Assembly: GCF_056712565.1 (NCBI RefSeq) | Contig: NZ_CM160072.1 | DNA: 64,000 bases | Strand: one strand, 5' to 3' | Shown: positions 18,001 through 21,000 of the stretch, piece by piece | How the letters are laid out: each line of letters opens with the position of its first letter | Numbering within the stretch: the stretch's first letter is position 1 | Position numbers: made by a program

Positions 18001-21000
18001 ATGACAGGAAAGCGCAGAGACCGCCGACCATCGCCGAGACCCACATCGCATTGAGCATATATTCATAGCTGAAGGGTTCCAGTAGCACGTTCATCTTTCT
18101 TCCCTCTGCACCGCTGACGGTCGATGAGCCACAAAAGGGCGTTCATCGTCAGTAATAATGCTTTCTTCCGAGCCGTTAAGTGTGACATGGCGCAGTACGC
18201 CGCTAAAAGCCAGCTCCAGGTTCTCGGCTGTAAAAGTGGTGTCTGTCGGCCCGCTTGCCAGGACGGTGCCTTTGACCATGACCGTATAATCGCAAAATGT
18301 CGTGACGGATCCGAGATTGTGTGTTGAGACAAGCATCGTTTTGCCTTCCGCGCGTAACTCCCTCAACAGGCTGATGATTTTGGCTTCGGTTTTCACATCA
18401 ACGCCGGTAAAAGGTTCATCCAGCAGGATCACATCACCCTGCTGTGCAATCGCTCTCGCCAGAAAGACGCGTTTCTTTTGTCCACCGGAAAGCTCGCCGA
18501 TTTGTCGATGGCGAAAATTCACCATATCGACACGTTCCAGCGCATCGGTGACAATCTGACGATCCCTCTTTTTGGCGATACGCAACATACCCATATGCCC
18601 ATAGCGGCCCATCATCACCACATCTTCCACCAGTACAGGAAATGACCAGTCAACATCTTCTGACTGAGGGACGTAGGCAACCAGGTTTTTCTGTAACGCC
18701 TGTCGCGTGGGAATACCCAGAACAGATATCTTTCCGCTGGTCAGACGCACAAATCCCATAATCGCTTTAAACAACGTCGATTTTCCGGAACCGTTTACCC
18801 CAACCAGAGCGGCAATAGATCCGCCTGGTACTGTGAAGGATGCATCGCGCAGTGCTGTGTGCCCGTTACGCCAGGTGACAGTAACATCATTAACGACAAT
18901 GCCTGCAGATTGCATCATTATTTCTCCCTTTTCCCAGCTTTAATTCCCTGTACCAGCGTACTGGTAGTAACCTTAAGAAGGTCGATATACGTCGGTACCG
19001 GGCCGTTTTCTGTGCTCAGGGAATCGACATAGAGCACACCGCCGTAGTGTGCGCCGGTTTCACGCGCAACCTGACGCGCTGGTTTATCGGAAATCGTACT
19101 CTCGCTAAAGACTGCCGGGATATGATTTTTCTTAACTATATCAACAACCTTACGTACCTGCTGCGGTGTTCCTTGTTGATCGGCATTAATCGGCCACAGA
19201 TAAAGCTCTTTTAGCCCCAAATCGCGTGCGAGATAAGAAAAAGCCCCTTCACTGGTGACCATCCATCGCTGATTCTCAGGGAGTTCCGTAATCTGCTTAC
19301 GCAGGGGGGCAAGGGTTTGGGTAATCTTGGCTTTATAAGTATCGGCATTGCGTTGGTAGGTTTGTGCATTTGCCGGATCGTATTTTATCAACGCATCACG
19401 AATATTATCGACGTAAATCAGAGCATTATCTGGCGACATCCATGCATGGGGGTTAGGTTTGCCCTCATAGGGTCCTTCGGTGATCCCTACAGGCGTCACA
19501 CCCGAAGAGACAATTACTTCTGGAACCCCATTGAGATGCTGGTAAAAGCGTTGGAACCACAATTCCAGATTCATACCATTGGCGAGAATCAGTTGTGCCC
19601 CCTGCGCACGTTTAATATCGCCAGGGGTAGGCTGATACTCATGAATTTCTGCACCAGGCTTGGTTATGGATGAGACTTCTGCAGCATCTCCCGCCACGTT
19701 TTTGGCCATATCCGCGATGATGGTAAATGTTGTAATGACCTTGAATTTTTCAGTTGCACTTGCCTGAAATGCGATCGAGCAGGTGAGTGCGAGGCCCCCC
19801 AAGAGCATGGTTACTTTTTTTATCGAGTGCATAATTTAGTACCTATAGTGAGCAAAATTAGAACAAACATAGCAACGGCTATGTTTTATAGCACAACCTA
19901 TACAAAATGAAAATGATTATCATTAGCGGTTTTGAGGCCCAAAACAGGGATTAGGTTGTTTCCGGCTGGCGACGCGTTATTGAGGAAAAAAGTAAGGCAG
20001 CTAGTAGGCTTTGAAATAACGTTTTGCGGTTGGCTGATGCAATTTCGAGAGTGCATGTATTGAATGATTTCTAGCCGTTACTGATTTTCGTATTTTTTGT
20101 ATGGGAGGATTTGCACCTCTCCCCACCGAGCCTCCATGACTTTACTCCACTGTCTCTAGGGCTGCTGTGTGCCAGGAGCGGAAGCAGGGGGGCCAGAGAC
20201 TCCTTAAAAGTTGATAGCTCGTTTTGCAGGGAGACTTACACGGTAAGCGTTATTCCGAAGAGCTTAAAATTGAAGCAGTCAAACGGGTTGTTGAGCGTGT
20301 TTATGCGCTGCCATCTGATTAATCGACGGAAGCAGTTCCGTTTGGTCTATGATGCAGTTGTCCGGCAGGCGCTCTGTGACGCAAAAGAACGATAGGAGTA
20401 GCATTGAAGTGAACGAGGTTATGCTTGTCTTATATTATCCTCTATTTTAAAAACATCAGCTGGTTGTGTAAGAGTTTTTATTGTTTTATCTTGTTGACTT
20501 TGCTTTTATGAAAACAGAGTGATTGATACAATGAAAACCTTAAGTGGGAAAGAGTTTAGGAAATTATTTAATCGTTATGAGACAGGATTCTATCTAAGTG
20601 AGTTTGAATACTTAAAGGACTTTGATCCTTTGTTTCCTGAATGCGTAGGGAAAGAATTAAAGTTGGGTTATAAACGAAAAGTTGATGTATGGTGCGAAGA
20701 GGATGCTGCGCTATATGCAGAATTTATAGCTACAAAAGAAAGGCTGAAAAGAGGCCGGTTAATCCTAAAAATAAACCAAGTGTGGTCGCGTGTATATCCT
20801 GCTTATATTTATGCAATTGAAGAAAGAATAAATGTCAGGGCAAAGGGGAGAGAGTCATTTAAGTATGAAACTGTGCAAGAAAAACAATGTAAACTTTCCA
20901 TAATGTTAGATGGTCTGAAAGACCTTGAATGTGAAATAGCTATGATTTCAAGTGAGTTTGAAATTGAAAAACACTCTATGCACTATTTTTATATGATTTT

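Follow-up and report, generated by a model that had tools for sequence, protein, structure and literature searches.

The DNA analysed here (64,000 nucleotides of contig NZ_CM160072.1, hereafter the window) comes from a B2 Escherichia coli with a phage-21-like prophage integrated at icd. The b region of this prophage contains, between the sit operon and a gene for a 256-residue protein (ORF256; ORF, open reading frame), a short relic of an IS3-family insertion sequence (IS) together with two palindromes, M1 and M2, that are candidate cassette boundaries. The gene order is tail and tail-fibre genes, two small ORFs, sitDCBA on the minus strand, a 686-bp intergenic stretch (19833-20518, from sitA to the next gene), the ORF256 gene, a 3' fragment of icd, ycgX and bluR, and the prophage ends about 1.4 kb from the IS3 relic. 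RefSeq gives no annotated feature within 19833-20518. This stretch is 100% identical in CFT073, Nissle 1917, UTI89 and other B2 E. coli, and is present at full length in 739 of 5426 complete E. coli genomes. The viable Jouyvirus phages 21, ev017, ev207, Perceval and 1H12 carry the 686 bp at 98.5-100% identity, placed between the side tail fibre gene and attP/int, and 20 phage records contain the region, phage 21 among them. The locus has the form of lambdoid b-region moron DNA, that is, accessory DNA between tail-fibre genes and att in viable phages. By comparison with other records (loci L001-L317, about 300 of which, L022-L317, served for the survey of M1 and M2) we divided 19833-20518 into modules A, B, C, D and E1, the relic being module D (Table 1).

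The frame 20236-20322 translates to LHGKRYSEELKIEAVKRVVERVYALPSD followed by a stop codon (20320-20322), and has TTA in place of ATG. The DNA of module D matches genes annotated as 'transposase' or 'IS3 family transposase' in thousands of records, with 85-88% identity over 73-74 nt in E. coli genomes (E about 1e-14) and up to 92% identity over 57-64 nt on Morganella, Klebsiella and Salmonella plasmids (64 nt at 92% on a Morganella plasmid). An intact relative, a ~1.23-kb element on plasmid pJ53-KPC_Vir (L003:2433-3661), has 26-bp inverted repeats (IRs) beginning TGAATCGCCACGG, a frameshifted orfAB and an OrfA N-terminus that reads MSGKRYPEEFKIEAVKQVVDRGYSVASVATR; D corresponds to positions 69-142 of this element, which are codons 2-26 of orfA. 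The relic peptide matches positions 5-22 of the Pfam HTH_Tnp_1 profile at E=0.005, a score under the gathering level, as is to be expected of an 18-residue match; the N-terminal helix-turn-helix of IS3 orfA is present in part. The initial annotation of this DNA had reported an IS3-family OrfA N-terminus in a frame that stops after about 30 codons, and both the family match and the early stop stand. It had also dismissed as spurious the 94-aa ORF at 20111-20395, rightly, given that this ORF lies in another frame, matches no family and is broken in the corresponding DNA of Citrobacter, described below. In the phage 21 annotation, an ORF corresponding to 20270-20395 of the window was already credited with a weak similarity to IS3, described there as 'unconvincing'.

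When the whole IS was compared with the 64-kb window by blastn and tblastx, only IS positions 69-142 were recovered, with no orfB and no frameshift site. The 26-bp IRs of the relatives had no copy anywhere in the window with up to 6 mismatches allowed, and searches of 20000-20600 and of the whole window gave no further IS pieces, IRs or orfB. No target-site duplication was found in the window, there being no surviving element ends for one to flank. The relic starts about 5 nt past the orfA start codon, and the leader upstream of it is unrelated to the leader of its IS relatives. The stretch 20241-20313 is a 73-bp internal orfA fragment without start codon, IS ends or orfB; it is derived from an IS3-family member and is not itself an IS. 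Set against intact IS3 elements, D retains only these 73 bp and has lost the start codon, the leader, both IRs, the frameshift site and orfB; what it has in common with them is the first 26 orfA codons (the HTH_Tnp_1 N-terminus) at 85-92% DNA identity. As the relic is internal and has no IS end, orfB or target duplication, it marks a deletion or illegitimate-recombination junction rather than a transposition end. The scar is old, as the initial annotation proposed, and is carried passively, at 98.5-100% identity, by viable phages. Similar debris occurs elsewhere. A longer stump of the same orfA, 216 bp in length (L016:5996-6211 in ev099), lies beside IS2 debris in the b regions of phages ev099 and PhiR70_1, and E. 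coli K-12 has a 249-bp transposase pseudogene stump of this orfA after yagB (L002:2496-2744) in which the left IR is retained. The stumps of ev099 and K-12 are, like D, debris within prophage accessory DNA.

Comparison with other genomes places the relic physically within a unit of about 1.2 kb (20154-21364) that is independent of sit and consists of leader C, relic D, E1, F and the ORF256 gene. A single 1214-bp alignment at 89% identity joins this stretch of the window to Citrobacter telavivensis (L019:4623-5836) and includes 75 bp past the gene. In C. telavivensis the unit lies in a chromosomal island together with a gene for a 200-aa tyrosine recombinase and without sit. ORF256 has no match in Pfam or NCBIfam and one weak match in PADLOC (PDC-M13C, E 0.0034). 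Its 22 homologs (63-99% identity) come from Enterobacterales and Aeromonadaceae, those at 63-88% being from Citrobacter, Klebsiella, Mangrovibacter and Aeromonadaceae. The AlphaFold2 model is confident (predicted local distance difference test score, pLDDT, 89.6) and shows four long helices besides a small alpha/beta part at the N-terminus, and Foldseek searches of the PDB with this model returned only generic helical bundles (E > 0.1). The identities of the gene at the three codon positions are nearly flat (93/91/90%), which suggests that ORF256 is under weak constraint or evolving fast.

Further copies of the gene have other DNA in front of it. In Klebsiella variicola (L020) the gene follows a short piece of the C region, with homology to the window resuming at 20420, to which M1 is directly joined, and both D and E1 absent. 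In Mangrovibacter (L021) it follows a left IR and about 160 bp of the orfA of a different, IS407-like IS3-family element, cut after ..KKYGGMELNEV. The homology of the window to L021 starts at 20410, inside this Mangrovibacter orfA frame, and module F of the window is suggestive of a remnant of a second IS3-family element, short as the stretch is. Hence the upstream flank of the ORF256 gene has gathered stumps of two different IS3-family elements. Module E1 had no match in E. coli genomes, plasmids or phages beyond full-length copies of the region, and 20314-20409, as tested, showed no significant similarity to either IS type. Probably, an IS that had long ago inserted in front of the 256-aa gene lost sequence on either side through deletion or illegitimate recombination, and the relic now hitch-hikes with the gene as inert debris.

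Table 1 Features of the window around the IS3-family relic, with the evidence for each
Feature	Coordinates	Strand	Evidence and relatives
sit module (module A, to 20017): sitDCBA (16383-19832) and upstream region	16356-20017	-	ORFs, annotation; common to IncF/ColV plasmids
Module B, conserved non-coding prophage DNA ending in M1	20018-20183	+	79-85% identity to unannotated intergenic DNA in L004, L009, L010
M1 palindrome GGCTGCT-G-TGTGCCA-GG-AGCGGAA, putative left cassette boundary	20160-20183	+	B-type homology to 20182; cassette-type homology from 20154-20164
Module C, ~57-nt leader after M1	20184-20240	+	79-94% identity to L007, L008, L019; similar in L065, L034
Module D, IS3-family orfA relic, codons 2-26	20241-20313	+	DNA and peptide matches; amino-acid frame 20236-20322
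Module E1, 80 nt	20314-20393	+	Common only to the Citrobacter copy
Module F, probable second relic	20394-20420	+	Matches last codons of truncated IS407-like orfA at the same spot in Mangrovibacter
Conserved upstream region of the 256-aa gene	20421-20518	+	Common to L019, L020, L021
ORF256, helical cargo protein, 256 aa	20519-21289	+	phrog_20520 (unknown function)
M2 palindrome GTCCGCA-GT-TCGCTCA-T-AATAGAC, putative right cassette boundary	21359-21382	+	L019 homology to 21364, L020 to 21374; L004/lambda homology from 21357
Conserved lambdoid module left of attP	21357-21567	+	88% identity to L004:3810-4015; 21360-21499 81% to lambda 27323-27464
Displaced icd 3' fragment, prophage end (attR side)	21761-21913	+	ORF translation; CFT073 RefSeq pseudogene; phage 21 annotation

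The two edges of the unit fall on related palindromes. At the left edge the B-type and cassette-type homologies overlap on M1 only, and at the right edge the cassette and lambda-like homologies overlap on M2 only. Prophage L004 has the same flanks (left with M1, 85%; right with M2, 88%) around a different content of 750 bp that includes a 74-aa ORF, and relatives of module B adjoin variable cargo in other prophages and plasmids as well (L004, L009, L010). The window copy of M1 has 3 mismatches to the consensus GTCCGCT-N-TGTGCCA-RR-AGCGGAC, and that of M2, in which the right arm is degenerate, also has 3. The overall explanation that we favour, and consider probable, is that of an inert orfA relic within an ORF256 unit that would itself be a cassette delimited by M1 and M2. 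The relic is real but ordinary; what was not expected, and can be put to the test, is the putative cassette boundary next to it.

Both palindromes are widespread. The M1 pattern CCGCTNTGTGCCARRAGCGG had at least 120 exact matches in each of two collections, the IMG/VR viral contigs and the species-representative genomes; in the latter, about 9 matches would be expected by chance (a rough estimate for 298 Gb). Palindromes of the form TCCGC-N12-GCGGA gave two recurrent families of 12-nt spacers, T.TGTGCCARRA (M1) and T..TCGCTCA.A (M2), the few other recurrent spacers differing in length. Conservation was limited to about 24-28 bp across 177 distinct contexts of M1 and 123 of M2. The sites consist of 7-bp arms (GTCCGCT/AGCGGAC) flanking 10 bp that include an invariant 7-bp core, which is the layout of core-type sites of tyrosine recombinases, and M2 is roughly an inverted M1 with 3-4 differences in the spacer. 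The arms are conserved in sequence and covary weakly, with only a CG<->TA exchange at position 4. Such conservation with little compensatory change fits half-sites recognised by a protein, and we disfavour the notion that the arms are merely structural, as in a hairpin, because they look sequence-specific.

The sites also follow a grammar. Across loci the order is M1-cargo-M2-18 nt-M1. M1 was followed by M2 on one strand in 99 architectures (median distance 1490 bp) and M2 by M1 in 59 cases; the start-to-start distances from M2 to M1 were 42 bp (55 times), 40 bp (7 times), 684 bp (9 times) and 682 bp (once). Neighbours of the same type were rare (15 M1-M1 and 10 M2-M2). The commonest viral context of M1 is 63 bp past the P2-type tail-fibre-assembly gene G; variable DNA comes next, and beyond it the gene for the tail sheath. 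In P2-like phages this position is the classical variable locus Z/fun. Enterobacterales genomes contain arrays of four to five cassettes (L255, L302). A BLAST search of phage records with a 73-nt consensus junction was uninformative, the query being too short.

Three further observations bear on the range of these arrays. In an E. coli island (L197:11765-17508) a complete TonB-dependent receptor gene and an operon for ABC iron uptake, 5.7 kb in all, lie between M1 and M2, and thus cassettes are not restricted to single small genes. In L019 (4587-4652) two M1 sites face each other head-to-head at a distance of 42 bp, and an array extends outward from them on either strand, so cassette arrays can be divergent. 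Outside Enterobacterales, in Alpha- and Betaproteobacteria (L205, L315, L080 and L203 being loci of Alphaproteobacteria and a viral contig), M1 is kept and its partner has the same arms with the spacer TT(A/G)CCCCCGAA, which suggests that the second site co-varies with the clade while M1 is constant.

The 684-bp spacing from M2 to M1 is that of a gene encoding a 200-aa tyrosine recombinase. M2 lies 62 bp before its start codon and M1 lies 21-23 bp after its stop codon, an arrangement seen at no fewer than 8 distinct viral-contig loci and also at genome loci such as L020 and L196. In the M1 that follows the gene the left arm is replaced by a terminator-like hairpin. Homologs of 61-64% identity have a different hairpin and then an M1-like right half (GCCAGAAGC..; GCCA.AAGC), which at two loci continues as ..GCGGA. 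The protein consists of the catalytic domain only (Pfam Phage_integrase) and has R51, K79, H148, R151, H174 and Y183, all present. Its best NCBIfam scores were 58 bits for an XerA/integron-type model and 51 bits for XerC, where the cut-offs are 220 and 335, and it fell far short of the cut-off of every recombinase model there; its nearest solved relative is XerD (E=0.002). Annotated as a 'site-specific integrase', it occurs in 771-985 of the 5426 E. coli genomes, where its gene is located inside lambdoid prophages and islands and is surrounded by hypothetical genes that M1 and M2 delimit. A candidate cognate recombinase is found in related loci and not in the window. Module B was considered as a relic of the 3' end of such a recombinase gene and rejected, the match being limited to the M1 part.

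The point of exchange was approached by a linkage test on pairs of sites with one flank at least 90% identical and the other at most 45% identical. From position 16 onward M1 tracks the right flank, differing in 52% of the same-left pairs (n=149) and in 0% of the same-right pairs (n=14, few), and positions 1-7 track the left flank. In M2 the positions up to 9 track the left flank and those from 17 onward the right (n=68; same-left n=4, few). These data indicate, indirectly and with few variable positions and small classes, that flank linkage may break inside the invariant 7-bp cores.

On the reading that we favour, the ORF256 unit would be a mobile cassette delimited by related 24-bp palindromes with the cores TGTGCCA (M1) and TCGCTCA (M2), and these would be core-type sites on which tyrosine recombinases of one 200-aa family act in trans. 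Two replicons would swap their cargo by exchange of M1 with M1 and of M2 with M2, a process that would amount to a natural recombinase-mediated cassette exchange (RMCE) with two heterospecific sites. We suggest tentatively, as a possibility that we hold to be less likely than not, that M1 and M2 of the window are fossil copies of a widespread and apparently undescribed cassette-exchange system, in which catalytic-domain-only 200-aa recombinases would swap cargo among P2-like phages (at Z/fun), lambdoid phages, plasmids and islands across Proteobacteria.

Several points weigh against this picture. The main rival is that M1 and M2 are not recombinase sites, that cargo is swapped by homologous or phage Red-type recombination, and that the palindromes have another role, for instance as a protein operator or a transcript end; homologous recombination on short conserved elements would yield similar mosaics. 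We regard this alternative as rather unlikely. In its favour, all the support for M1 and M2 comes from the comparison of sequences, P2-like and lambdoid phages are prone to recombine, and the literature leaves open how cargo is exchanged. The proteins of the window include no such recombinase, and the gene adjoins M1 in 4 of the 120 genome loci listed, most M1 sites not being beside one. The linkage test had few variable positions and small classes (14 same-right M1 pairs and 4 same-left M2 pairs), and the central region, at 10 bp, is longer than is usual for tyrosine recombinases. With 3 mismatches each, the window copies of M1 and M2 may be fossils. Of the unit itself, the source of E1 is unaccounted for, and it is odd that the relic should begin almost exactly at the orfA start codon. 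Other observations speak against homologous exchange. In many contexts only some 24 bp are conserved; the two spacer types alternate strictly and the tandem spacing is fixed at 42 bp, which homology alone would not lead one to expect; and the recombinase gene is placed exactly between M2 and M1, where even distant homologs keep an M1 half-site. Moreover, linkage seems to break within the 7-bp cores and not across the whole site, and replicons as unrelated as P2-like phages, lambdoid phages, plasmids and islands are joined by these sites.

Parts of the proposed exchange system have counterparts among known systems. Lambdoid morons are likewise accessory genes between tail-fibre genes and att, and a small cassette with conserved flanks is likewise found there in unrelated phage families; the present case is set apart by flanks that come down to two defined 24-bp palindromes, for which there is a candidate recombinase. 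A sopE cassette common to P2-like and lambdoid Salmonella phages was reportedly described by Mirold et al. in 2001. The resemblance to integrons lies in arrays of short cassettes split by an imperfect-palindrome junction of about 66 bp (M2-linker-M1), in a tyrosine recombinase present at some arrays and missing from many, and in diverse, often defence-like cargo. Unlike integrons, the M1/M2 arrays go with a recombinase of 200 aa that is a catalytic domain only, with no IntI-type integrase; their cargo lies in either orientation, and the sites are found inside phages, plasmids and islands with no fixed platform. That M1 and M2 are attC sites was rejected, as there is no inverted RYYYAAC/GTTRRRY pair and GTT stands in direct orientation on both sides of M2-linker-M1. 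The pdif modules of Acinetobacter plasmids are Xer-dependent and have 28-bp sites (11-6-11) acted on by the host XerC/XerD. They too are bounded by sites that alternate in form, whereas M1 and M2 have a 7-10-7 bp layout, an unrelated sequence and a candidate dedicated small recombinase, and so are not pdif sites. Engineered RMCE with heterospecific lox or FRT sites also uses two sites with common arms and different spacers, and a double exchange swaps the content and keeps the flanks; it is artificial, whereas the natural counterpart proposed here is only inferred. The sfx sites of the R64 shufflon are 19-bp repeats with the core GTGCCAA, recognised by Rci. This recombinase has about 384 aa, and a shufflon works by inverting DNA segments inside a single gene. 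GTGCCA(A) is also part of the M1 core TGTGCCA(A), a resemblance that may be coincidental.

The interest of the sites lies in the P2/P4 hotspots, at which the exchange of cargo is described as extremely rapid and its mechanism as unknown (Rousset 2022; Moura de Sousa 2026 preprint). If true, recombination at M1 and M2 would be the mechanism, lacking until now, by which phage hotspots replace their defence and virulence genes so quickly, and the pair of sites with its candidate 200-aa recombinase makes the question of hotspot swapping experimentally simple. In the P2/P4 hotspot literature we did not find the M1/M2 motif in print, a check that did not extend to the work of Nilsson et al., who are said to have inferred, in 2004, site-specific recombination at P2 loci; the novelty of the sites is therefore uncertain. 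M1 and M2 would also serve annotators as a marker of cassette boundaries in prophages, plasmids and islands, and the enzyme, if confirmed, would be a natural two-site cassette-exchange recombinase of possible use in genome engineering.

A second alternative concerns the relic, namely that the C-D-E1 leader was kept for a function, as a promoter, 5' untranslated region (UTR) or micro-ORF controlling the 256-aa gene. The block is indeed kept between E. coli phages and Citrobacter, and module C recurs after M1 with unrelated cargo. Its relatives on Klebsiella plasmids lie upstream of a DUF6602 gene (L007:2521-2577) and an HNH gene (L008:2525-2582), and the pattern ..GGAG.GCCAGAG.C.CTCTAAAAGTTGATGGT.CGTTTTGCAGGGA..CTTAC follows M1 in several cassettes with unrelated cargo; module C could be an accessory recombination sequence or a shared promoter or 5' UTR. 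However, D and E1 diverge more than the third codon positions of the gene: between the window and L019 the identities are 84% for C, 86% for D, 82% for E1 and 91% for the ORF256 gene, with 89.9% at third codon positions, and the Citrobacter D has a +1 nt insertion that shifts its frame. As D has decayed near or above the third-position divergence and is frameshifted in L019, the relic drifts as neutral DNA. Furthermore, the Klebsiella gene does without D and E1, and no consensus sigma-70 site was found on the plus strand upstream of the 256-aa gene. Folding of 20040-20245 as RNA was not better than that of shuffled sequences on either strand (z +0.87 and -0.15), and an Rfam search at permissive thresholds, covering the window region and two canonical M1 loci, returned only SNORA17, a eukaryotic snoRNA, below threshold (E 0.16). 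We consider a retained function for the C-D-E1 leader improbable.

The initial annotation had further proposed that the IS3 debris marks the event that delivered or truncated the sit operon, and this we think very improbable. The relic does lie about 400 bp from sitA, the plasmid copy of sit adjoins IS1, and IS debris is frequent in lambdoid b regions. The homology to plasmid-borne sit nevertheless stops at 20017 (16356-20017, query 257-3918, at about 96.8% identity in about 1000 plasmids), which leaves 223 bp between the end of the sit module and D, occupied by module B with M1 and by leader C. The plasmid sit loci are without the relic, their matches ending at query position 185 of 686; in the Citrobacter island the relic accompanies the 256-aa gene in the absence of sit; and there is no IS end or target duplication. 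The relic, inert as it is, should not be taken as evidence on the acquisition of sit. A further alternative, that C and D together are the true left end (IR, leader and orfA start) of an undescribed IS3-family element and hence an ordinary left-end stump, draws on the Shine-Dalgarno-like AGGGAGA at the end of C, 5-6 nt before the lost ATG position, and on the length of C (57-76 nt), about that of an IS3 leader, but is very improbable given that C without D precedes DUF6602, HNH and other genes, always directly after M1, that it ends at the same nucleotide (+/-5) in each unrelated cassette, and that in three intact relatives the leader is almost the same and bears no relation to C.

The sit module itself has a phage history at its other end. 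Its sitD-distal edge (16299-16380) lies within the remnant of a tail-fibre-assembly gene (..KKYRVLL..), and the plasmid copy of sit (L018:3480-3530) retains a diverged piece of the same remnant, which suggests that the plasmid and phage sit operons descend from an ancestor in a phage context. An M1-like sequence at the left edge of the module was rejected as a site, as it is the KKYRVLL-coding part of this remnant. In RefSeq the sitA gene of CFT073 is frameshifted (L001:11064-12000), whereas the window has an intact 304-aa sitA ORF (18918-19832); the window thus probably derives from a different B2 strain, unless an indel in the CFT073 record accounts for the difference.

Module B contains a hairpin, GGGAGG-ATTTGCA-CCTCTCCC, at 20103-20123. 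Its first ~80 bp (20018-20098) are present in 5393 of the 5426 E. coli genomes, with a median of 3 copies, one of which lies in the core ykgJ-ecpE intergenic region (compared loci L012:2501-2576 and L011:2450-2581). In some prophages the PGAP annotation calls these ~80 bp a partial 'capsid protein' pseudogene, a label that looks spurious.

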